A stretch of 64,000 nt of DNA from NCBI GenBank assembly GCA_964016885.1, contig OZ024763.1, positions 11,098,001 to 11,162,000 of the forward strand. Direction: 5' to 3'. Position 1 is the stretch's first letter. The number at the start of each line of letters is the position of its first letter. Source of the stretch: Eledone cirrhosa (lineage: Eukaryota). The notes under the pieces were generated by a model. It did not search any database and was not told where the DNA came from. It saw nothing but the letters and a program-made list of their open reading frames with translations. The translations under genes were made by a program, and so were the position numbers. Below are positions 1,800 through 51,365 of this stretch, in pieces.

Positions 1800-2820
1800 T
1801 AGTTATACTTTGGGATGGACATGCTGCCAATAAATTAAGCCCTCAAACTAACTGCAAAACTAGTAACGTGATATATAGCTGTACTGAGGGACAGTGTGGG
1901 AATATGGACACAACTTACATAGGTGGGACAGCCCATAGCATAGGAGAAATAAGTGAACACTGGTGAGAACTCCAAGATGGGAAGAACTCATCAGTACTCC
2001 ACCAACATAGCAGAACAGAACATAGGGGCACATTAGAGAACATAGAGATAAAGATCATATCCACACACAGAACAGACGCAATGCTTAGACAAATTACAGA
2101 AACCACAAACATAAACACACTCCAACCAAAATTAAACAGAAAACACAAGTGTAATAGCAACAACATCACAACTAGTAATTAAGGACAAGATAAAGACATA
2201 CAGAGAGACATACAAAAAGTAAACTAATTAAGAGCAATATAAAGACATAGAGACACTTGAGAACCAAACTAATAAAACAAACCAGACGACACACAGATAG
2301 AACAAACAACCAACTAGTGACGAGTAAATAAATGTATAAATAAATAACAAATAGATATATTTTAAAAAATAAATAAAAACACACACAAAGCCGGATATAA
2401 TGCATGCACAGCTCAAGTACACAGCTCACGATACAAAGACAAGATTGCGTGGGACAGAACAAAGGAGAAATACAAAATAACAAAAGAAGTCACTGAGGAA
2501 GTCACAATGTGTGATGATAGAGCTTTGATGACAATCAACAACTAAACAACCAACTAGTGACGAGTAAATAAATGTATATATAAATAAGTAAATAAAGCAC
2601 ACACAGGATATAACGTATGTCCAACCCAAATACACAACACACAAAAACAAGATGGTGTAGGACAGAACAAAGGAGAGATACACAATAACAAATTAGAAGG
2701 TTTGACAATAAACAAATAAATAACCATCTTGTTATTAAACTAACTAACTGGGAATTTATAACAAACTAAATAAAAAGAAAACTAACAGGTGCGTGTGTTT
2801 TCATTGGCAACATGACCCTC
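1800..2820 (+). mobile_element. Penelope-like element 3' remnant (GIY-YIG endonuclease and 3' UTR)
   Basis: Translation [33 protein letters not shown] matches the PLE copy at ~50700-50830; degenerate HHR-like motif at ~2490-2528; internal duplication 2305-2480/2543-2690. Confidence 0.75.
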
Positions 2821-4784: not shown

Positions 4785-7700
4785 CTTAGTCTTTGTCTTA
4801 CATTCTTCCGCGCCGTTCGGCGCATCGAGCAGTAAGTACTCGCCAATGGTGACGATCAGCGGCAAATTTTTCGAGACCGTGCCAGGTGATGTTGGCGGCC
4901 ATCAGGTCCTTCCGGAAGAACGTTCGTCGCCAGGTGATCCTTGGGCAACCCCCGCCTCCGTTTACCGCCGCGGAGTCCAGTTCATCGCTGTTTTCGAATG
5001 CCGTTCATTTGGCAGACGCAGAATATGGCGGCCAGCCAGACGGCACCGACGCTCCGTGACCACTCTCTGTAGCGTCCACGACTCGGCTCTCCGCAGGATC
5101 TCCTCGTTTCGCACTCGGTCGCGCCAGGACACACGAAGGATCTTTCGCAGGCACCGCTGGTGGAAAGCGTTCAGCCGTCTCTCTATTTTTGTCGCATTCT
5201 TCCAGGTCTCGCTCGCATAAAGCACTGTCGGCAGCACGATGCTCTTGTACAGGCGGAGCTTGGTCTTGGTGCTAATACATGAAGACGACCAGACTGGGCA
5301 CAGCCGCTGGAAAACTGCGGCTCCTTTGCCGATCCGACAGTTGATGTCGAGCTCCGCGTCACCGCTGCTTGTCAAGATGCTGCCCAGATAGGTGAAGTGA
5401 TCGACTTCCTCGAGGTCCTGTTGGTTGACTCTGATCACTGGACCTGTGTTGCTGGCCGTTCTCATGACCTTGGTCTTTTTGGTGTTGATTCTCAAGCCGA
5501 TCTTTTCCGCAGTCTCTTGTAGGGATGTTGTTAGGACCTACAGATCTGCACTATTTTCAGCGATCAAAGCGATGTCGTCGGTGAATGCCAGGTCCCTCAG
5601 CCTCGACTAGCCTCTCCATGGGATTCCTCGACCGGGTCCTTCATCCATTCGCCTTAGTACGAAATCGACTGCCAGCAAGAACAACAGTGGAGAGCGAATG
5701 CAACCCTGTCTGACTCCGGAGACAATGCCAAAGAACTCCGTCACACCGGACTCAGTCCGCACGCAGCAGCTGGAGTTTTCATACAGGGACATGAAAATAG
5801 CAATGAATCCTGCAGGAATGCCGTACAGTTGCGCAACATTCCACAGTGACTCCCGGTGTACACTGTCGAATGCCTTCTGGAAATCAATAAAATTGACCTC
5901 CAAAGACTGTTGTAGCTCAACGCATTGTTCGAGAATGTTCCGTAGTGTAAAGATCTGTTCCTTGCAAGATCGATTTTTTCGGAAGCCGGCTTGTTCCTCC
6001 CGGAGCACAGAGTCGACAGCCTGCAGGAGTCGACGCAGCAGCACAGGGCAGAATGCCTTGCCTGGGACTGACAGCAATGTGATACCACGCCAGTTGTTGC
6101 AGTCTGCCAGGTTTCCCTTCTTCGGCAGTTTGACGATGACACCGCGCTGCCACTCAAGAGGAACCCGACCAACCCTCCAGCACTGGTTCATCAAGTCTAT
6201 CAACGCCGTTATCGTGCTCTCCTCACCGAATTTGAGCAGCTCAGCAGAGATCTCATCCAGTCCGCCTGCTTTGCCGTTCCTCAAGTGGCTAATCGCATCT
6301 CTCGTCTCCTGCTTGGTGATATGGTCCTTGCAGACTTTCAGTACCTCAGTGGTTGCTGGAGTCTCTACGGTCAAGTCTATCAGGGCGACCGGATTTGGTT
6401 GGTTCAGCGTCTCCCGGAAGTGCTCCATCCATCTCTGCCCCTGTTCCGCTCCAGTGGTCAACGTCTTGCCATTTTTGCCCTTCACTGGCATGCTGGCACC
6501 GCTCGACACTCCTGTCAACTCCCTCACGATGCGGAACAGTGCTTTTGTATCGTTTCGACCAGCAGCTTCCTCTGCATCAGCCCCCTTTTTCTCCAGCCAG
6601 TCACGTTTGTCCCGCCGGCAGCTTCACTTTACCAGTCGGTCGATTTGGCGGTATACGGCATCTCTTTTCTTTTGGTCTTCCTCCGATCTGGCAGAATCTC
6701 GCTCGACTTTTGCCTTTTTTCGTCTGTCAATCATGGTCCCACGCTGGTTCTTGGATCCATTTTCCCTCCTCGTTCCTCGTCTTCGGCCAATAGTTTCTTG
6801 TGCTGCCTCGGTCACCGCTGTCGTGAACATCGTCCATTGATCTTCCAGATCTGCAGCCTCACTCAACTGCTGGAATCGGTTGTGTAGCGCCAGTTGGTAC
6901 AGTCGCGCTTGACCGGGATACTTCAGTTTCTCCACTACATATGGCTTTGGTCTTTCCTGTCGTGTCCGTTTCTTCATGCGCAGCTGAAGTTCCGCACACA
7001 GTAGGTGGTGGGCTGAGCCCACGTCCGCACCTCGGTACACTCTGACGTCACGTACCGAGGACCGCCAGCGCTGGTTGATGCAGATGTAGTCGCTCTCGTT
7101 TCGGCTTTTCTGGTCCGGAGACTGCCTAGTAGCCTTGTGAATCGCCTTGTGTTTGAAATAGGTGTTGCTAATGCACAAGCTGTTGATGGAACAGAACAGC
7201 TGCAGTCTCTCGCCGGTGTCCGTGGTGACCACAGCAGAACCGAATGGCCCAGTTACCTGTTCCAGTCCCTGTCTGTTGCAGCCAATCTGAGCATTGAAAT
7301 CACCGATCAGTAGCTTGATGTCATGGCTGAGCAAGTTATTAAATGTGTCCTGCAGCTGTTCTTAGAGGGCGTCCTTGTCGATGTCGGTTGCGTCATCAAT
7401 CGGTGCGTAGCCCTGAACAACAGTGATTTTCGCATGCCCACTTTGAAAACGGGAGGTTATGATGTGCTCGCTGACTGGCTCCCATCCGATCAATGCTCGA
7501 GTTGCTCGGGCGCTAAACACAAGTCCAACGCCATGAACGTGCTTGTCTTGGTGTCCACAGTAGAGCAGAGTTGTCTCCGCTGCCACTCATCTTTCCGCTG
7601 CCGGTCCAGCGCATTTCACTCACGCCCAGAATGTCCAGCTGGTAGTGGTCGAACTCGCGAAGTAGCTGAGCCAGCTTTCCTGCCTGGTGTAGTGTACGCA

Positions 7701-8022
7701 CGTTCCAAGTTCCAATTCGCATCTTTGTTTTGGTGCTCAGAATCCGGCTCATCGGAACCCCAAAGTCCTTTCGGCTTTGGTCGAGGTCTGTCAAGAGTGG
7801 AGTGTTTCCCACGCCTTCATCTTTACGCCGTTCATTTTTTTTTTTTTGGGGGGGGGGGGCTTTTCTTGCTGTTTCTTTAGAGGTTAGAATTTTTACAGCG
7901 GTGCCGAGTTGTTAACCCGACGGCTGCGCCTGTATTTGCCGATTCTTTGCCCACTGAGATTAATGGTTGGCACCCCTTCGCCACGATGAGGCGTCCGGCA
8001 AGACCAGGGGACTCATCAGGGG
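4785..8022 (-). mobile_element. Full-length RTE-clade non-LTR retrotransposon, decayed
   Basis: APE endonuclease (RIGTWNVRTL, LIGDFNA, SAHHL) followed by RT (NWRGITLLS, FIDFQKAFDSV, GVRQGC, FTDD) and RTE-type C-terminus (LYASETW, LAGRHILR); flanked by catactgcacat (4773-4784) and catactacacat (8023-8034), a probable 12-bp TSD. Confidence 0.93.
4800..7812 (-). pseudogene. RTE endonuclease/reverse transcriptase polyprotein, disrupted by stops and frameshifts
   Basis: ORF pieces 7513-7812, 7362-7586, 6624-7334, 5607-6527 and 4962-5495 are collinear parts of one EN-RT protein. Confidence 0.9.
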
Positions 8023-10040: not shown

Positions 10041-10095
<55 letters not shown>

Positions 10096-10171
10096 AAAAG
10101 AAATAGAAAATGCAACTGGAGTCTTTTTAAGAATATTTATTTGTTTCCTTAAAAATGTGTCAAAGATTTTC

Positions 10172-10220
10172 GCCCCCGCGCAAGGATGACACGCAAATTC
10201 GGGAAGCGTTCCATATTTTT
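10172..10220 (+). pseudogene. U6: U6 snRNA 3' fragment (retrocopy) inside a fold-back element
   Basis: gcccccgcgcaaggatgacacgcaaattcgggaagcgttccatattttt matches the conserved metazoan U6 3' half (GCCCCUGCGCAAGGAUGACACGCAAAUUCGUGAAGCGUUCCAUAUUUUU) with 2 substitutions. Confidence 0.92.
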
Positions 10221-10752
10221 AAGGAAACAAATAAATATTCTTAAAAAGACTCCAGTTGCATTTTCTATTTCTTTTCCTTATATATATATATATATATATA
10301 TATATTTAGCCCCGTTTTTTCCTCATGTGCTTTTTCATAAATACACATGAAGGCGAACTAGCCAGTTTTAGAATTCCCTTTTTCGGATTATATTACTGTG
10401 AGAGCCCTGGTTTTCTGTTGAGCTCTGCTGATGATTGAAATTCCAACCGTGACCATCTCCACTGAAAGTTTTCATGAAATAGTCTTTTAAGACTATACAG
10501 AGCATTTGATGTTATTCCAAATTGAAGGATAAGTGTTTCAAACTTTATTTTATCATGAGTTAAAGGTCTATAGATTTTCCCTGGATTTTACTAAATTCTG
10601 TGGATGAATTTATATCCTGATTCTCTTTTGAGATGAGTTTGAGTTATTTTTCCTAAATCTTTCGTTAACTACTTTTCCCATCTTGACGTTATAGTCGCAT
10701 ATATGTTATAGAATGCCGTTAGCTTCTTGCTAAAACAATCTCTATACCTCTC

Positions 10753-10812
<60 letters not shown>

Positions 10813-11640
10813 GGTGGTCTTTACTTAACAAAAAGGCTGGTGACTCCTAAATACGACAACGATGATGATGGTGGTGATGGTAGTTGAGGCGGTGGCGGCG
10901 TTGGTGGTGGTGGTAGTTGAGGCGGCGTTGGTGGTGGTGGTGGTAGTGGTGGTGGTGGTGGTGATGATGGTGGTGGTAGTGGTGGTGATGTGATCGTGGT
11001 GGTGATGGTGGTGGTGGTGGTGGTGATGGTGGTGGTAGTGCTGGTGGTAGTGGTGGTGGTGGTAGTGGTGGTGGCGGTGATGTTATGACGGGGGATTACC
11101 AAGTCGGGTGGGATACCGGGTTGTTCTGATTAGCAAAGCCTTTAAGTAGCTGCACCTGTTCAGGTTTGTTGTCGTTGATAATGGTGCTAATGATGATGTT
11201 GATGTTGATGATGATGATGATGATGATGATAGTGAAGATTATGGTGATGATGATGGTGCTGGTGAAGGAGGTGATGATGATGATGATGATGATGATAGTG
11301 TTATCAGTTATGGTTGGAAAGCGCAATACAGATTTTTAAATTAATGAGGAGGGAGAGGGAGAGGGAGAGAGAGAGAGTTACAGAGAGAAACAGAGAGAGA
11401 GAGTGACAGAGAGAGTGACAGAGAGAGAGAGAGTTAGGGAGAGAAACGGAGAACGAGAGTGAGGAAGGGATAAAGAGAGAGAGAGAAGAGGGGGAGCTGA
11501 AGGAAGGGATTCAGAGAGAATAATGAATTAAGGCGCACATATGCAAAAACACACACACACACAAACATATATATATAAATATCTGTATGTATATATATCT
11601 ATCTATATATATACATATATATATATACATATATGTACAT

Positions 11641-11712: not shown

Positions 11713-11820
<108 letters not shown>

Positions 11821-12080
11821 AAAAAATGAAACGAAATTTCATTTCCCACTCTTAGTACGGCTGTTACTTAAATATAAGTATGTATACGTACATACATATA
11901 TGTATACAGACGTACAGTAGTATGTATATATATACATACATGCACACATATATATATGTACGTATGGATTTACCGAACATTTATTATAATGCTCGGTGTG
12001 TTTGTAAACAAACATCCCGAATTAAGCCGTACAGTGTTTAGCAACCATCGTTGCCCTTTTGTTTAACACTGACAAAGGAA

Positions 12081-12121
12081 CGATGTACTAGTTTCAAGCT
12101 TATTAGCTAACGTCAGCACCG
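12081..12121 (-). ncRNA. Minimal hammerhead (family D), one core substitution
   Basis: Minus strand: cggtg-CTGACGT-tagct-aata-agctt-GAAA-ctag-TA-catcg. Confidence 0.7.
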
Positions 12122-12567
12122 TATACCTTCCTGCCAGATGATTGAACGTCTGAAAGTATATACTTTCCTTATGCATATTAACGGCTGAGTAGCCTAATTT
12201 GCATATCGAGTGAGTTAATCGGCCGGGCGCACCGAAAACGATAAATGGAATAAAGAGAGGGAGAGAGAGAGAGAGAAAGAGAGAGGGGGGGGGGGGCTGA
12301 AGGAAGGGATTCAAAGAAAATAATGAATAAGGCGCACATATGCAAAAACACACACACACACGGCTCCTTTGTCAGTGTTGAACAAAAGGGCAACGATGGT
12401 TGCTAGACACTACGGCTTAATTCGGGATGTTTGTTTACAAACAAACCAAGCATTATAATAAATGTTCGGTAAATCCATACGTACATGTATATATGTGTGC
12501 ATGTATGTATATATATATACATATTACTGTACGTCTGTATACATAGATGTATGTATGGATACATACT

Positions 12568-12615
<48 letters not shown>

Positions 12616-12760: not shown

Positions 12761-13289
12761 AATAATTATCTTATGTTGTTTATTACATAACTAATAAGCT
12801 CTGTAGCCTACATAGAGCACTCTCTTTTCCTGCATCTTTCCGACGGAAATACTTCATTCATATATATATATATATATACACACATACACACATATATATA
12901 CTCTTGATTAATAAAGAAAATATTCTACAATTGTGTATTCATATATATATATATATATATGTACACGTACATATATATATGTATACAGACGTACAGTAGT
13001 ATGTATATATATATACATACATGCACACATATATATATGTACGTATTCCTTTGTCAGTGTTGAGCAAACGAGCAACGATGGTTGCTAGACACTACGGCTT
13101 AATGCGCGATGTCTGTTTATAAACACATCGATCATTATAATAAATGTTCGGTGAATCCATACGTACATATATATGTGTGTGCATGTATGTATATATATAT
13201 ACATACTACTGTACGTCTGTATACATATATGTATGTACGTATACATACTTATATTTAAGTAACAGCCGTACTAAGAGTGGGAAATGAAA

Positions 13290-13525
<236 letters not shown>

Positions 13526-26967: not shown

Positions 26968-27611
26968 TTAAAGTCAACTAGACAGCTACCATGAAGGCCA
27001 GCTAGGTACCCAGCTAAGGTAGAGACCTCAGAGAGGTGTTACCATTAAAGTCAACTAGACAGCTACCATGAAGGCCAGCTAGGTACCCAGCTAAGGTAGA
27101 GACCTCAGATAGGTGTTACCATTAAAGTCAACTAGACAGCTACCATGAAGGCCAGCTAGGTACCCAGCTAAGGTAGAGACCTCAGAGAGGTGTTACCATT
27201 AAAGTCAACTAGACAGCTACCATGAAGGCCAGCTAGGTACCCAGCTAAGGTAGAGACCTCAGAGAAGTATTACCATTAAAGTCAACTAGACAGCTACCAT
27301 GAAGGCCAGCTAGGTACCCAGCTAAGGTAGAGACCTCAGAGAGGTATTACCATTAAAGTCAACTAGACAGCTACCATGAAGGCCAGCTAGGTACCCAGCT
27401 AAGGTAGAGACCTCAGAGAGGTATTACCATTAAAGTCAACTAGACAGCTACCATGAAGGCCAGCTAGGTACCCAGCTAAGGTAGAGACCTCAGAGAGGTA
27501 TTACCATTAAAGTCAACTAGACAGCTACCATGAAGGCCGGCTAGGTACCCAGCTAAGGTAGAGACCTCCGAGAGGTGTTACCATTAAAGTCAACTAGACA
27601 GCTACCATGAA
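26968..27611. repeat. 77-bp minisatellite, ~8 copies
   Basis: aagtcaacta recurs at 26971, 27048 and onward; highly homogeneous. Confidence 0.95.
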
Positions 27612-27957
27612 GTGTATTACTGAACCATAAAGTATCACAGTTTTATAGAGATGTGTATAATAAAATTAAATCTATAATACTTTCCTGAGATCAATAACAA
27701 ATCACTGAACATCTTAGCCAGGTAGCAATGTTGTGGGAATACCCAAAGTAGTAGAGAGAATTGTATGGTGTTATGACACCAAACATGATTTGGCGTGGTT
27801 GTGTGTGAACGGTGTAGTGGGAAATGCATCTTTAGTCATTTTATTAATGTAGTCAGAGAAAGAAATGTCAAAAACTAAGTTCGTCAGATTGTGAAACTGT
27901 AAGGTGAATTTTGTTTTATTTGAGAGAATGGGGTGCAAAACTGGGAGAAGGGGACAT

Positions 27958-32699: not shown

Positions 32700-33310
32700 G
32701 AATATCTAATTAGCTACTATCACAGCCAGGTAATACAATACAATTTAGTATTATCCGTGTGAATATCCAATTTGCTTTTAACACAGACAAATATTGCAGT
32801 ATTATCCTATGTCGTGTAAATATCCAATTAGCTATTAGCACAGATATTGCAGTATAACTTAGTATTATCCCGTGTCGTGTAAATACCCAATTAGCTATTA
32901 ACACAGACAGATATTGCAGTATAACTTAGTATTATCCCGTGTCGTGTAAATACCCAATTAGCTATTAACACAGACAGATATTGCAGTATAACTTAGTATT
33001 ATCCTGTGTCGTGTAAATATCCAATTAACTACCAATACAACCAGATATTGCAGCACAATTTAGTATTACCCCGTGTCGTGTGAATGTCCGATTGGCTACT
33101 GACACAGCTAGATATTGCAGCACAATTTAGTATTATCCCGTGTCGTGTGAATATCTTATTAGCTATTAACACAGCCATGTGAAGCGATACAATTTAGTAT
33201 TATCCCGTGCGAAACAATTTAGTATTATCCCGTGTGAAACACGGTGAGATATTGCAGTACAATTTAGTATTATCCCGTGTCGTGTGAATATCCAATTAGC
33301 TGCTAACACC
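32700..33310. repeat. ~67-bp degenerate minisatellite
   Basis: agtattatcccgtgtcgtgtaaatacccaattagcta recurs at 32861, 32928 and onward. Confidence 0.85.
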
Positions 33311-33444: not shown

Positions 33445-33664
33445 TATGTAAGTATAAACTAATATATATGATGAAACACAGATACCAACACATCTGTATT
33501 TATATTGCAAAAGAAAAAAATCATATATATTAGTTTATACACAGCTCAGGGGTATTTCCTCCTTCGAGCTAATTCCATTGTAAAAGAATTCATTACACTT
33601 AATAATATATATGTAAGTATGTATGTATACGTACATACATATATGTATACAGACGTACATCAGC

Positions 33665-33713
<49 letters not shown>

Positions 33714-33867
33714 CATACAGGCACACATATATATATGCACGTATCAGTTTACTGAACATTTATTGTAATGTTCGCTTTGTTCGTTTGTAAACAAACGAAC
33801 AGCCTGATATACGCTGTACGGTGTTTAGGCAACCAGGTCACCTTTTTGTTCAACACTGACACAGGAA

Positions 33868-33908
33868 CGAAGTACTAGTTTCAAGCTTGTTAGCTATCGT
33901 CAGCACCG
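33868..33908 (-). ncRNA. Minimal hammerhead (family D), intact core
   Basis: Minus strand: cggtg-CTGACGA-tagct-aaca-agctt-GAAA-ctag-TA-cttcg; 1-bp helix III with palindromic CUAG loop. Confidence 0.78.
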
Positions 33909-34216
33909 TATACCTTTCTGCCAGATGGTTGAACGTCCGAAAGTATATACTTTCCTTATGAAAATTAACGGCTGAGCAGCCTAATTTGCATATCGAGTGA
34001 GTTCAGTCGGCCAGGCGCACCGAAAACGATAAATGGAATAGAATGAAACAAAATTTCATTTCTCACTCTTAGTACGGCACTTACTTAAATGTAAGTATGT
34101 ATGTATACGTACATACATATATGTATACAGACGTACAGCAGCATGTATATGCAAATTAGGCTGCTCAGCCGTTAATTTTCATAAGGAAAGTATATACTTA
34201 TTATACATTTACAAAC

Positions 34217-35148: not shown

Positions 35149-37897
35149 ACACTGTCTATGTCATTAACCCTTTCATTACCATATTTCTAATGAAAGACAC
35201 TGTCTATGTCATTAACCCTTTCATTACCATTTTTCTAATGAAAGACACTGTCTATGTCATTAACCCTTTCATTACCATATTTCTAATGAAAGACACTGTC
35301 TATGTCATTAACCCTTTCATTACCATATTTCTAATGAAAGACACTATCTATGTCATTAACCCTTTCATTACCATATTTCTAATGAAAGACACTATCTATG
35401 TCATTAACCCTTTCATTACCATATTTCTAATGAAAGACACTATCTATGTCATTAACCCTTTCATTACCATATTTCTAATGAAAGACACTATCTATGTCAT
35501 TAACCCTTTCATTACCATTTTTCTAATGAAAGACACTGTCTATGTCATTAACCCTTTCATTACCATATATCTAATGAAAGACACTGTCTCTGTCATTAAC
35601 CCTTTCATTACCATATATCTAATGAAAGACACTGTCTCTGTCATTAACCCTTTCATTACCATATATCTAATGAAAGACACTGTCTCTGTCATTAACCCTT
35701 TCATTACCATATTTCTAATGAAAGACACTGTCTCTGTCATTAACCCTTTCATTACCATATTTCTAATGAAAGACACTGTCTATGTCATTAACCCTTTCAT
35801 TACCATATATCTAATGAAAGACACTGTCTCTGTCATTAACCCTTTCATTACCATATATCTAATGAAAGACACTGTCTCTGTCATTAACCCTTTCATTACC
35901 ATATTTCTAATGAAAGACACTGTCTATGTCTTTAACCATTTCACTACTATATATATAATGAAAGACACTGTCTATGTCATTAACCATTTCATTACCATAT
36001 TTCTAATGAAAGACACTGTCTATGTCATTAACCATTTCACTACCATATTTCTAATGTAAGACACTGTCTATGTCATTAACCATTTCATTACCATATTTCT
36101 AATGAAAGACACTGTCTATGTCATTAACCATTTCACTACCATATTTCTAATGAAAGACACTGTCTATGTCATTAACCCTGTCATTACCATATTTCTAATG
36201 AAAGACACTGTCTATGTCATTAACCATTTCACTACTATATTTCTAATGAAAGACACTGTCTATGTCTTTAACCATTTCACTACTATATTTCTAATGAAAG
36301 ACACTGTCTATGTCATTAACCATTTCACTACTATATTTCTAATGAAAGACACTGTCTATGTCTTTAACCCTTTCACTACTATATTTCTAATGAAAGACAC
36401 TGTCTGTCATTAACCATTTCACTACTATATTTCTAATGAAAGACACTGTCTATGTCTTTAACCCTTTCATTACTATATTTCTAATGAAAGACACTGTCTA
36501 TGTCATTAACCATTTCACTACTATATTTCTAATGAAAGACACTATCTATGTCATTAACCATTTCACTACTATATTTCTAATGAAAGACACTGTCTATGTC
36601 ATTAACCCTTTCATTACCATATTTCTAATGAAAGACACTCTCTATGTCATTAACCATTTCACTACTATATTTCTAATGAAAGACACTGTCTATGTCTTTA
36701 ACCCTTTCATTACTATATTTCTAATGAAAGACACTGTCTATGTCTTTAACCCTTTCATTACTATATTTCTAATGAAAGACACTGCCTATGTCATTAACCA
36801 TTTCACTACTATATTTCTAATGAAAGACACTCTCTATGTCATTAACCATTTCACTACTATATTTCTAATGAAAGACACTGTCTATGTCATTAACCCTTTC
36901 ATTACCATATTTCTAATGAAAGACACTCTCTATGTCATTAACCATTTCACTACTATATTTCTAATGAAAGACACTGTCTATGTCATTAACCATTTCACTA
37001 CTATATTTCTAATGAAAGACACTGTCTATGTCTTTAACCCTTTCACTACTATATTTCTAATGAAAGACACTGTCTATGTCATTAACCATTTCACTACTAT
37101 ATTTCTAATGAAAGACACTGTCTATGTCTTTAACCCTTTCACTACTATATTTCTAATGAAAGACACTGTCTATGTCTTTAACCCTTTCACTACTATATTT
37201 CTAATGAAAGACACTGTCTATGTCATTAACCATTTCACTACTATATTTCTAATGAAAGACACTGTCTATGTCTTTAACCCTTTCACTACTATATTTCTAA
37301 TGAAAGACACTGTCTATGTCATTAACCATTTCACTACTATATTTCTAATGAAAGACACTGTCTATGTCTTTAACCCTTTCATTACTATATTTCTAATGAA
37401 AGACACTGTCTATGTCATTAACCATTTCACTACCATATTTCTAATGAAAGACACTGTCTATGTCATTAACTATTTCACTACCATATTTCTAATGAAAGAC
37501 ACTGTCTATGTCATTAACTCTTTCATTACCATATTTCTAATGAAAGACCCTGTCTATGTCATTAACCCTTTCATTACCATATATCTAATGAAATACACTG
37601 TCTATGTCATTAACCCTTTCATTACCATATTTCTAATGAAAGACACTGTCTATGTCTTTAACCCTTTCATTACCATATTTCTAATGAAAGACACTGTCTA
37701 TGTCATTAAACCTCTCATTACCATATTTCTAATGAAAGACACTGTCTATGTCATTAACCCTTTCATTACCATATTTCTAATGAAAGACACTGTCTATGTC
37801 TTTAACCCTTTCATTACCATATTTCTAATGAAAGACACTGTCTATGTCATTAACCCTTTCATTACCATATTTCTAATGAAAGACACTGTCTATGTCA
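35149..37897. repeat. 48-bp satellite, ~57 copies
   Basis: Unit tcattaaccctttcattaccatatttctaatgaaagacactgtctatg. Confidence 0.97.
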
Positions 37898-39110: not shown

Positions 39111-40261
39111 ATATATATATATAATTGTTTCTACTTTTGGCACAAGGCCAGCAATTACCCAGTGCATTACTGGTACTTTATTTTATCGACCCCGTAAGGA
39201 TGAAAGGCAAAGTTAAACTCGGCGGGATTTGAACTCAGAATGGCAAGGGCCGTAACTCTATGCGTCAAAGCATGGCGTCCGACCCTCTACCGACCCTCTA
39301 TAATATATTTATACAATATATATATATAATATACATATTTATTAAAATAACAGATTAAAGTTTAAGCAAAGAATCGCTGCTTTCACCCTTAACGGGATCT
39401 TCTGAAACTCAAAAAAATCAATCTGTGAACGCAGAAGTAAATATTTCGAAAAACGTTGCAACCGAACGAAAACAGGAAGACAATATTTTGGTTCGTGAAG
39501 ACGTTCCCTGGCAAAGAACGGAAGAAAGCGAAGATAATACGTCATTATATGGAGCGTTGAGAACAAATACACGCAAAGACAAAACCGCGTTTATGGTATA
39601 AATATTCTTTTTAGGAAACCGAATGATTCTCGGCTTCAGAGTTAAGAATAATTGTTTCTACTTTTGGCACAAGGCCAGCAATTACCCAATGCATTACTGG
39701 TACTTTATTTTATCGACCCCGTAAGGATGAAAGGCAAAGTTAACCTCGGCGTCGGTTAAAATATTTTATAACTAACAAATAATTTATCGCTCTACATGGC
39801 TGAATACAATAAATTTAATCTGAGTTTTTCGAATATCAATAATGATATTCGATTCGTTTGCAATTATGCAAACAGCCTCTTTAAGCCATGTCAGTAGAAT
39901 GACCCCATCATTCTTGCCCTTGTGTTGGCATGTAAACAAACAGCTCGAATTAAGCCGTACAGTGAAACTAGTGAAACTAGTTCATATTTCCTTTGTCAGT
40001 GTTGAACAAAAGGGCGACGATGGTTGCCGAACACTGTACGGCTTAATTCAGGCTGTTTGTTTACAAACAAACCGAACATTATAATAAATGTTCGGTAAAC
40101 CCATACGTACATATATATATATATATATGTGTGTGCATGTATGTATATATATATACATACTACTGTACGTCTGTATATATATATGTATGTACGTATACAT
40201 ACTTACATTTAAGTATCAACCGTACTAAGAGGGGGAAATGAAATTTCGTTTCATTCTTTTC

Positions 40262-40294
<33 letters not shown>

Positions 40295-45831: not shown

Positions 45832-46234
45832 TCATATACATATATATCATGGCGGAATTTAGATTTCGAGATTTGCTATCACTTCCCACACAACGGTGGC
45901 ACGAAAGAAGAACCTTTTGCAGCAATGGCCGGGCATGCTCATACAACAGACGTGAAAGACATTTAAATCAAGGGATGCCTGTGCCTGAAGCTTTTTTAAG
46001 TGTGGAATGGCCTTGCACTGGACCAATCCCACCCTACGAACAACGGTGATTGGTAACTAAAATGTAGAGCAGGCTTACCATCGAGTGGAAGGTTTTACAT
46101 CAGAAATTCCCTTCTAGAATAATGTTCGAACAAAAATTAGGGCCATCTCACTCTCGGTGACCTAACGGCATGCTCAGGCACCAAACCGAGTATTTCCATG
46201 ACCCCGCGCATCGCATATATACACACATATATAC

Positions 46235-47605
46235 ACACATGTATCCACACATATGTACACATGTATCCACGTATATATACACATGTATCCACGTATATAT
46301 ACACATGTATCCACGTATATATACACATGTATCCACGTATATACACACATGTATCCACACATATATACACATGTATCGACGTATATATACACATGTATCC
46401 ACGTATATATACACATGTATCGACGTATATATACACATGTATCCACGTATATATACACATGTATCCACGTATATACACACATGTATCCACACATATATAC
46501 ACATGTATCGACGTATATATACACATGTATCCACGTATATATACACATGTATCGACGTATATATACACATGTATCCACGTATATATACACATGTATCCAC
46601 GTATATATACACATGTATCCACGTATATATACACATGTATCCACGTATATACACATGTATCCACGTATATATACACATGTATCCACGTATATACACACAT
46701 GTATCCACGTATATACACACATGTATCCACGTATATATACACATCTATCCACGTATATATACACATGTATCGACGTATATATACACATGTATCGACTTAT
46801 ATATACACATGTATCCACGTATATATACACGTTTCCACGTATATACACACATGTATCGACGTATATACACACATGTATCCACGTATATATACACATGTAT
46901 CCACGTATATATACACACGTATCGACATATATACACACATGTATCGACGTATATATACACATCTATCCACGTATATATACACATGTATCCACGTATATAC
47001 ACACATGTATCCACGTATATATACACATGTATCGACGTATATACACACATGTATCCACGTATATACACACATGTATCCACGTATATACACACATGTATCC
47101 ACGTATATATACACATGTAGCCACGTATATACACACATCCACGTATATACACACATGCATCCACGTATATATACACATGTATCCACGTATATACACACAT
47201 GTATCCACGTATATATACACATGTATCCACGTATATATACACATGTATCCACGTATATACACACATGTATCCACATATATACACATGTATCCACGTATAT
47301 ACACACATGTATCGACGTATATATACACATGTATCCACGTATATACACACATGTATCCACGTATATATACACATGTATCCACGAATATATACACATGTAT
47401 CCACGTATATATACACATGTATCGACATATATATACACATGTATCGACATATATATACACATGTATCCACGTATATATACACATGTATCCACGTATATAT
47501 ATACATGTATCCACGTATATACACACATGTATCGACGTATATACACACATGTATCGACGTATATACACACATGTATCCACGTATATACACACATGTATCC
47601 ATGTA
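46235..47605. repeat. 22-bp minisatellite, ~60 copies
   Basis: Unit acacatgtatc(c/g)acgtatata(t/c). Confidence 0.95.
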
Positions 47606-47713
47606 TATATATAGACACATATGCTAACATGTAGTCACATATATGATGACGGTTGTCTGCTCAATACAAAGCTTGATACATATACACAGACACATATTCT
47701 ACATATATCTACG

Positions 47714-49898: not shown

Positions 49899-51365
49899 CG
49901 TTACGTAGACGATATCAATATAGTTATAAGAACATCCCCACTAGAGAGCACTAACAAGTTTGATTTATAACGTAACACAATGGAAAGCATCCAGCAGATA
50001 GCTAATTCCATACACCAGAGTATAACTGTAACTATCGACTACCCTTCCAAACACCCTAACAATAGACTACCTGTATTAGACACGGAACTCTGGATTAACA
50101 CTATAGACGAGAGAGCCCAAATTCTCCACTCACACTATGCTAAACCCATGGCCTCCAAATACCTGATACTCAAAAACTCAGCAATGTCCAGTAGTGCTGA
50201 GTTTAATATTCTGATCGCAGACTTGGTACGAGTGATGAAGAACGTGTCCCGCAGGTGCGACCCAACAGAAATGGAAAGACACATCCAACACTTCATCAAC
50301 CGCATGCAGTTCTCTGGCTACAACCAAAGAGACAGAATCAGAGTATACGAAGGAGCCACGGAGAAGTATAAGACCCTCATAGAACTGGACATGAAAGGAA
50401 TTTGCCCATTATACAGGAGCAAATCATGGAATAGCTTAGATAGGGCTAGACATACGATAGGGAAAGCCACATCATGGTACGACAAGCAGAGATACCCGAG
50501 TGTCATGTTTGTGTACGCTACCCCTGGAGGGAAATTAGCTAACCAGTGTAGAAAGGCCCTGAGAAAGACCCACTTAAAGATTAAGGTGGGAGAAAAGCCA
50601 GGAACCACCATGAAATCCCTGATCAACAAAACCTACCCTTTTAAGAAAACCCACTGTACTAATAGGAAATGTATCATATGTAAGGTAAACACCCGGATAA
50701 ACTGTAAAACTAGAAACGTAGTCTATAGCATAAGATGTACAGAGGGTACTTGCAGAAACATGACAACAACATACATAGGCGAGACAGCTCGTAGCATAGG
50801 TGAAAGGATAGACCAACACTGGGGGAACTAAAAGGACTAAAAAATGGTTCAGTACTATACGAACATGCCAGACAACAACACGACCGTAACATAGACAACA
50901 TAGAAATTAGAATAATATCTAAACATAGAAATGACCCAGCAGATAGGCAAATCAGAGAGGCCAGTGAAATAAAACTTAGAAGGCCAAAGCTAAACAGAAA
51001 AAATGAATGGAATAACAACACCCAAACAAAGAACACTGACCTAAGAGAAGTATAAATAAATAAATAAATAGACAAATAAATAAATAAATACATACACAAG
51101 CACAATAACAACAAACACATAAACACGCACTAGTAAAGATAGAATACATTAACCAATACACAGTCACCCAATCACGAACACACATCAAACAAAACGCTAT
51201 ACACACACGCAAACGCATGCGCAAAGAAGACAAAATAAAATAAACAAATAAATAAATATATAAACAGACTAAATAAAGATGGCGTAGAAAATACAATGCA
51301 ACGGGAGGAAACAATAGCACCACTGACGATGTTGCAGATGTGCAACGAAAGAACTTTGATAAACT
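49899..51365 (+). mobile_element. Penelope-like element, 5'-truncated (RT C-terminal part and GIY-YIG endonuclease)
   Basis: RYVDDI at 49899, LPVLD, HYAKPMAS, CxxxxCxxC linker, VVYSIRC..YIGETARSIGERIDQH; HHR-like ca-CTGACGA-tgttgca-gatg-tgcaac-GAAA-gaac-TT-tg at 51321-51358. Confidence 0.9.

Follow-up and report, generated by a model that had tools for sequence, protein, structure and literature searches.

The repeat at 33611-34199 of the analysed window (the whole 64-kb stretch of DNA) belongs to a family, here called family D, that is very probably a high-copy, ORF-less, pLTR-like unit of ~430-450 bp, non-autonomous and mobilised by a PLE protein. On the best reading, family D is in effect a free-standing PLE-type pseudo-LTR (pLTR), of the kind that has been named non-LTR retrozyme, and its RNA template must cross the head-to-tail junction of the unit, either as a multimer or as a circle. 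The original prediction had set an origin from a PLE against a retrozyme nature. This contrast is a false choice, because the copies bear PLE signatures and animal retrozymes have been proposed to be non-autonomous PLE derivatives, the two being argued to be the same thing (10.64898/2026.07.22.740005).

The repeat structure of the unit was confirmed in most respects. The 24-mer on which the original prediction rested is found at two positions of the window and no others, 33611 and 34089, and is surrounded by a 65-bp direct repeat (33608-33672 and 34086-34150, 63/65 identical). The end of copy A (Table 1) does run into its own start: in a blastn comparison with the window the end maps to 34040 and the start to 34034, leaving an overlap of ~7 nt. 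Window alignments of the two main copies reach E-values down to 1e-114, so the family D match is not due to chance. The unit lacks an ORF, as had been claimed, the longest ATG-ORFs on circularised units being 50-58 aa and mostly microsatellite-derived. The proposed 478-bp unit is the true period at copy B but includes a private 30-bp (TA)n expansion, a typical unit being ~430-450 bp: the internal TA tract has 49 nt in copy B, 19 nt in four of six homologous segments and 17 nt in copy A, and the unit measures 448 bp in copy B without the TA expansion and ~431 bp in copy A. The units analysed range from 431 to 478 bp with a GC content of 0.35-0.37. The junction of the supposed head-to-tail locus is present, but copy B comprises only 1.13 units with a single HHR (hammerhead ribozyme); copy A is the other copy longer than one unit, by ~7 nt. 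ARAGORN reported no tRNA gene, and thus a tRNA-derived SINE head is unsupported. The ATTTGCAT octamer was confirmed at 33984; as evidence for a promoter it was set aside, since it sits in a predicted stem.

Five sense copies (A, A2, E, B and C) are present in the window, 76-96% alike over the first 128 nt shared (n=5). Their sense 3' ends fall at the junction in two of the five (A, C), 16 nt short of it in one (E) and ~52 nt short in two (A2, B). Two preferred sites, each used by two of five copies, therefore lie ~52 nt apart, compared with 30-40 nt for published PLE tails. The 3' ends abut TA runs in 4/5 copies, in a window that is microsatellite-rich and has a high background of such runs, and inverted pieces are attached to the 5' ends of three copies (B, C and E). 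Copies had been predicted to start at different phases; the phases do vary, but given the preferred internal 3' ends and the inversions they are not random. PLEs are described as having partial tandems, inverted 5'-truncated copies, microsatellite targets and non-autonomous head-to-tail derivatives (PMC8557442), and their reverse transcription as starting internally at two neighbouring sites (PMC11167929). By analogy, we regard the preferred 3' ends, inverted 5' pieces and (TA)n targets of family D as PLE insertion signatures.

Several local features accompany these insertions. Copy A is flanked by a 111-bp direct duplication (11452-11562 and 12252-12361, with 94% identity over the unique part). 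This may be a target-site duplication of very large size that later received copy A2; at copy B no target-site duplication is evident by eye. In retrozymes this duplication, when present, is described as longer than 4 bp. At the 5' end of copy C, GAAACTAGT is doubled (39965-39981); its sequence is that found at the end of the predicted 5' cleavage product, without the final base. Copy B is flanked by minisatellite arrays, one on each side, with 67-bp and 48-bp repeats.

Table 1. Coordinates in the window of family D copies, their parts and PLE-type coding fragments
Feature	Position	Strand	Description
Copy A	11818..12255	-	One full unit plus ~7 nt; 3' end in (TA)n
Copy A2	12365..12575	+	Starts ~+7 from predicted HHR cut; ends at internal site in (TA)n; head-to-head with copy A
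Copy E	12948..13292	+	Copy 13046-13292 starting +6/+7 from predicted cut; inverted piece 12948-13046 at 5' end
Copy B	33611..34146	-	1.13 units: 112 nt from the end of one unit, followed by a unit that stops ~52 nt short, at internal site beside TA
Copy C	39931..40263	+	Copy 39972-40263 starting ~-10 from predicted cut and ending at junction in (TA)n; inverted piece 39931-39964 at 5' end
Head-to-tail junction	34034..34040	-	Also preferred sense 3' end of insertions; ~7-nt overlap
Internal TA tract	33669..33717	.	30 bp longer than in most other copies
ATTTGCAT octamer	33984..33991	+	On HHR strand within predicted hairpin stem
Inverted 53-bp piece	34147..34199	+	Sense 5' end of copy B; 53/53 inverted match to 33941-33993; absent from the original prediction
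Type I HHR	33868..33908	-	Predicted by motif search and folding
HHR stem I	33908-33904 / 33872-33868	-	5 bp, predicted
HHR core CUGACGA	33903-33897	-	
HHR stem II		-	U.U pair plus 4 bp, predicted
HHR GAAA	33882-33879	-	
HHR helix III ACUAGU		-	Short, palindromic (self-complementary), predicted
Predicted HHR cut	between 33873 and 33872	-	After GUA
PLE-type coding fragment	49974-50828	+	C-terminal part; CX4CxxC and GIY-YIG-like segment by eye; broken by stops
PLE-type coding fragment	1850-2162		Broken by stops

Public sequencing data extend these observations beyond the window. A run search listed 23 runs, of which 20 contain part of the stretch and three contain half or more of its words; none is recorded as RNA, and they have no bearing on expression. 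Four of the 23 (X21, X1, X8 and X4) were aligned at 80% likeness to 33718-34146, a 429-bp reference in which 34079-34146 was skipped and the TA tract was not followed through, and runs with small shares were left unused. The results considered below comprise 40 of 81 variants, 15 of 76 joints and 18 of 513 loose ends; the remainder could include a coding flank or a core variant of lower frequency. Family D is abundant and diverse: it is matched by 46,365 of 12,467,656 RAD reads of run X21 and by 5,905 of 16,285,364 contigs of run X1. The junction recurs in these data, with 1,474 X21 reads leaving the reference at 34038 and continuing into an A-type start, which is the unit's own other end, and with one X8 contig doing the same. 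It is bridged by X1 piece 8 (33951-34072, 13 differences) and by X4 piece 9 (33718-34078, 14 differences in 361 bases), the latter under a different organism label. In 41 X1 and three X8 contigs (TA)n stands just before 34029, the terminus of copies A and C, and no foreign conserved sequence was found at the junction among the 18 of 513 loose ends listed. A change of strand occurs in 12 of the 15 joints listed (of 76), several of which have their start in a local hairpin and may be artefacts. Pile-up ends at 33966, 33983/33986 and 34052/34055 were not accepted as biological termini, since AATT sites lie at the same positions and RAD cutting is the probable cause. In X4 a single contig is 96% identical to copy B, closer to it than the other window copies are; possible explanations for its presence under that label are a related species, horizontal transfer or carry-over of DNA. 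Exact-pattern scans returned 0 loci in metagenome contigs, viral contigs and prokaryote genomes.

A junction this common in reads and contigs would also be produced by an HHR-bearing tandem satellite spread at the DNA level, through unequal crossing-over or extrachromosomal DNA circles, with the dispersed pieces as its fragments; local tandem amplification has indeed been proposed for retrozymes (10.64898/2026.07.22.740005). Against such a satellite, the copies are dispersed, sit at (TA)n sites and have one-sided preferred ends and inverted 5' pieces, and Tandem Repeats Finder (periods up to 500, score >=80) detected no array of the family D period within the window. We regard this origin as most improbable, and a retrotransposed pLTR-like unit remains the preferred interpretation.

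The ribozyme had been placed at 33868-33908, and one HHR core does lie there, but on the minus strand, which is a correction. Neither full window copy has a perfect HHR: copy B carries a private stem I mismatch at 33871, and in copy A stem I is intact and core A9 is changed to U. At the level of the family the HHR is intact despite these defects. The pairing base at 33871 is present in 20,215 of 20,394 X21 reads and in nearly all aligned contigs of X1, X8 and X4. Among the 40 of 81 variants listed, those in the HHR affect N7 (51% of X21 reads), loop II (46%) and a stem I G.U-to-A-U change (10%), and none affects the core. Copy B, with its one damaged HHR, could not release a monomer alone. An Rfam search of 33720-34080 gave six weak unrelated hits and no hammerhead match, and on the whole window it was swamped by microsatellite and miRNA matches. 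According to folding, the monomeric HHR fold is 13-17 kcal/mol worse than its competitor in both full copies (-0.5 vs -13.7 kcal/mol in copy A, +4.1 vs -12.8 in copy B), which suggests that the monomer would be a weak cleaver. By analogy, this predicted weakness fits the dimer requirement described for PLE hammerheads (PMC4209133, PMC6765202), in which HHRs with a small palindromic helix III are present (PMC4209133).

The mechanism that we propose builds on these elements. Partial or full tandem loci would be transcribed on the HHR strand through the junction, and the HHR, probably acting as a dimer, would cut multimers into monomers, which may be ligated into circles. A PLE reverse transcriptase/GIY-YIG endonuclease would copy family D in trans: the PLE protein would nick AT-rich DNA, and reverse transcription would begin inside the RNA, at the junction or ~52 nt before it. 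Copying would often stop early, sometimes at the HHR cut ~268 nt away. In other cases it would continue, in copy A across the following 170 nt and in copy B beyond the junction. Run-on copying past the cut would need an uncut multimer, a circle or a template jump, and the 170 nt upstream of the cut could be inherited only if the template passes one HHR, that is, as an RNA multimer, a circle or jump-joined monomers.

The circular or multimeric RNA intermediate of the original prediction thus stands in its weak form, in which the template crosses the junction; a circle is plausible. That family D forms circular RNA in vivo we rate as an even prospect; that its template is a covalently closed ~450-nt circle, copied by rolling-circle reverse transcription as a special case of the mechanism above, is possible but somewhat doubtful. 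Such a circle would account for copy B, which exceeds one unit and whose repeated parts are 63/65 identical, although an uncut tandem transcript yields the same products and explains the crossing of the junction as well, and the three of five copies that stop near the cut are what a linear cut template would give. A contig assembled from a closed cycle carries an overlap of k-1. The sole X4 contig, 478 nt long, can be read as 448 + 30, the length of a closed cycle at k=31 if its TA tract has the modal 19 nt; however, 478 nt is also the period of copy B without any overlap, and a DNA tandem or carried-over DNA could give the same. Strong self-pairing was dropped as support for a circle, since the TA tract contributes most of the fold scores (z -11.4 and -8.3); once it is removed, z is -2.1 to -3.3, inside the range of eight control stretches (-4.9 to +1.9). 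A 7-bp helix predicted across the junction (pair probability ~0.65 in B and 0.1 in A) and covariation (1/31 pairs changed on both sides in five sequences) were likewise judged too weak to use. Circles are formed by retrozymes of coral, mussel and axolotl (PMC7229834), and among Xenopus retrozyme dimers 1/9 was cleaved (10.64898/2026.07.22.740005). In the one reconstituted PLE, that of the anole, uncut RNA is the main template (PMC11167929), so that more-than-unit copies need no circle.

The sense 5' ends concern the part played by the cut. Copy A starts at the junction and copy B 112 nt beyond it, and three of five copies start <=10 nt from the predicted cut (A2 at ~+7, E at +6/+7 and C at ~-10). 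Under a uniform model three such starts have a nominal chance of 0.001, a value for a pattern noticed post hoc and for a truncation process that in reality is not uniform. A 2-bp deletion common to A2 and E leaves their independence in doubt, and none of the three inverted pieces has its 5' end close to the cut. In the window's other HHR families, most starts lie upstream of the cores. The depth of run X21 does not confirm that 5' ends cluster at the cut: it falls there from 21,686 to 20,548 (~5%) and provides a blunt test, as short copies of the A and E types match B poorly left of 33845. We consider it unlikely that the copies record ribozyme-cut RNA as the template in PLE-driven retrotransposition in vivo. 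If they did, the double GAAACTAGT of copy C (the last 9 nt of the 5' cleavage product) could be explained by a reverse transcriptase that reached the cut 5' end and jumped twice onto the cut 3' end of a monomer. Should this be true genome-wide, the HHR would define the template, and more-than-unit copies would arise from jumps or circles at the cut. Such a role would contrast with the anole PLE, in which the HHR is dispensable in vitro (PMC11167929), and would tie retrozymes to PLE enzymes by mechanism and not by co-occurrence or phylogeny.

All insertion hallmarks of family D suit a coding PLE equally well, and its copies might be solo or partial-tandem pLTRs, 5'-truncated remnants of such an element with no life cycle of their own and no monomeric RNA. 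The majority of PLE insertions have undergone truncation that leaves a single terminal repeat (10.64898/2026.07.22.740005), helix III of the family D HHR is weak and palindromic as in PLEs (PMC4209133), and PLE coding fragments do occur in the window. In a coding PLE, however, the end of the ORF body precedes the start of the pLTR, whereas in family D this place is taken by the unit's own end, as seen in copy B, 1,474 X21 reads and bridging contigs of X1, X8 and X4; moreover, the 18 of 513 loose ends listed contain no foreign conserved flank. The original prediction had pointed to fixed termini attached to a coding PLE as the contrary case: preferred termini were found, but no attached coding PLE. 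An autonomous partner with family D ends is absent from the window, whose PLE fragments share no DNA similarity with family D (blastn, 64 kb), a result that counts against mobilisation in trans. An origin as remnants of a coding PLE is quite improbable, and the non-autonomous unit mobilised in trans is preferred.

The larger coding fragment (49974-50828) nevertheless represents a plausible helper class for family D, though without shared DNA. Of 444 candidates 500-2000 residues long, 35 are homologous to it, the best being an Octopus vulgaris protein with 62% identity. RT and GIY-YIG Pfam matches of these homologues are weak and fall short of the curated cut-offs; the fragment itself has no Pfam match. 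Zn-finger linkers of the CX4CxxC type are characteristic of Neptune/Nematis-type PLEs, where they may assist in targeting (TA)n (PMC8557442). The host may be octopus-like. PLE-type HHR elements are densely packed in the window. Besides family D, 13 further hammerhead-like motifs with a stem I of at least 4 bp, counted without a shuffle control, lie at 200, 8366, 9267, 9447, 9857, 10428, 12707, 13985, 22233, 23988, 26191, 26441 and 58121; they span several other repeat families, many as inverted pairs within (TA)n. A palindrome in (TA)n at 10093-10278 has arms of ~65 bp that enclose the 3' portion of a sequence resembling U6 snRNA (Rfam match at 10129-10220, 40.2 bits, under the gathering score of 44), perhaps a piece of U6 captured by an inverted-repeat element. 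Other repeats include a broken LINE-type element on the minus strand (4962-7911), whose frames include an endonuclease-like one and one for reverse transcriptase (RVT_1 at 5610-6623, E 1e-20), and long minisatellites at 35149-37897 (48 bp), 26968-27612 (77 bp), 32798-33309 (67 bp) and 46224-47611 (22 bp).

Compared with known systems, family D combines an HHR, a non-coding unit, a head-to-tail junction, a partial tandem, inversions and TA targets. The class of element is already known, and family D is a newly recognised member of it. Among the reports listed by a literature search on octopus or cephalopod hammerheads and retrozymes, none describes such a family, although the supplements of PMC7229834 and 10.64898/2026.07.22.740005 may list one; molluscs are unmentioned in the available part of PMC5680766. 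Metazoan non-LTR retrozymes resemble family D in their ORF-less unit of a few hundred bp, a GC content below 50% (35-37% in family D), one type I HHR and the head-to-tail junction (PMC7229834; 10.64898/2026.07.22.740005). Many dispersed monomers are known in retrozyme families, as the family D copies are dispersed, and the U.U pair at the base of stem II is shared with axolotl HHR_Amex2. Retrozymes are reported as RNAs of 170-400 nt, and the family D unit is at the long end. Runs of at least two consecutive units, each with a full HHR, by which the 2026 preprint defines active elements (10.64898/2026.07.22.740005), are found in 0/5 window copies of family D. PLE-type inversions and fixed 3' ends like those of family D are undescribed for retrozymes in the available text of PMC7229834 and 10.64898/2026.07.22.740005.

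These latter traits link family D to the pLTRs and non-autonomous derivatives of endonuclease-bearing PLEs (e.g. MRC1 of Chlamydomonas), with which it shares the partial tandem, the inverted 5'-truncated piece, the (TA)n targets and the short palindromic helix III (PMC4209133; PMC8557442). It differs from PLE pLTRs in that no attached coding body was found and no autonomous partner was identified in the window, and in the start of stem II, which is U.U in family D and an extra base plus G10.1-C11.1 in PLE pLTR HHRs. The Poseidon PLE of Anolis, PAc (Frangieh et al. 2024, PMC11167929), likewise has two neighbouring internal priming sites downstream of the cut and AT-rich targets. In contrast to the ORF-less family D it encodes its own protein; its priming distance after the cut is ~90 nt versus ~268 and 216 nt, and it used uncut RNA in vitro, whereas three of five family D copies begin near the cut. 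Very abundant, and uniting a retrozyme-type junction with PLE-type ends, family D offers a test system in which the distribution of copy ends could bear on the mobilisation of retrozymes by PLEs and on the in vivo role of the hammerhead cut.
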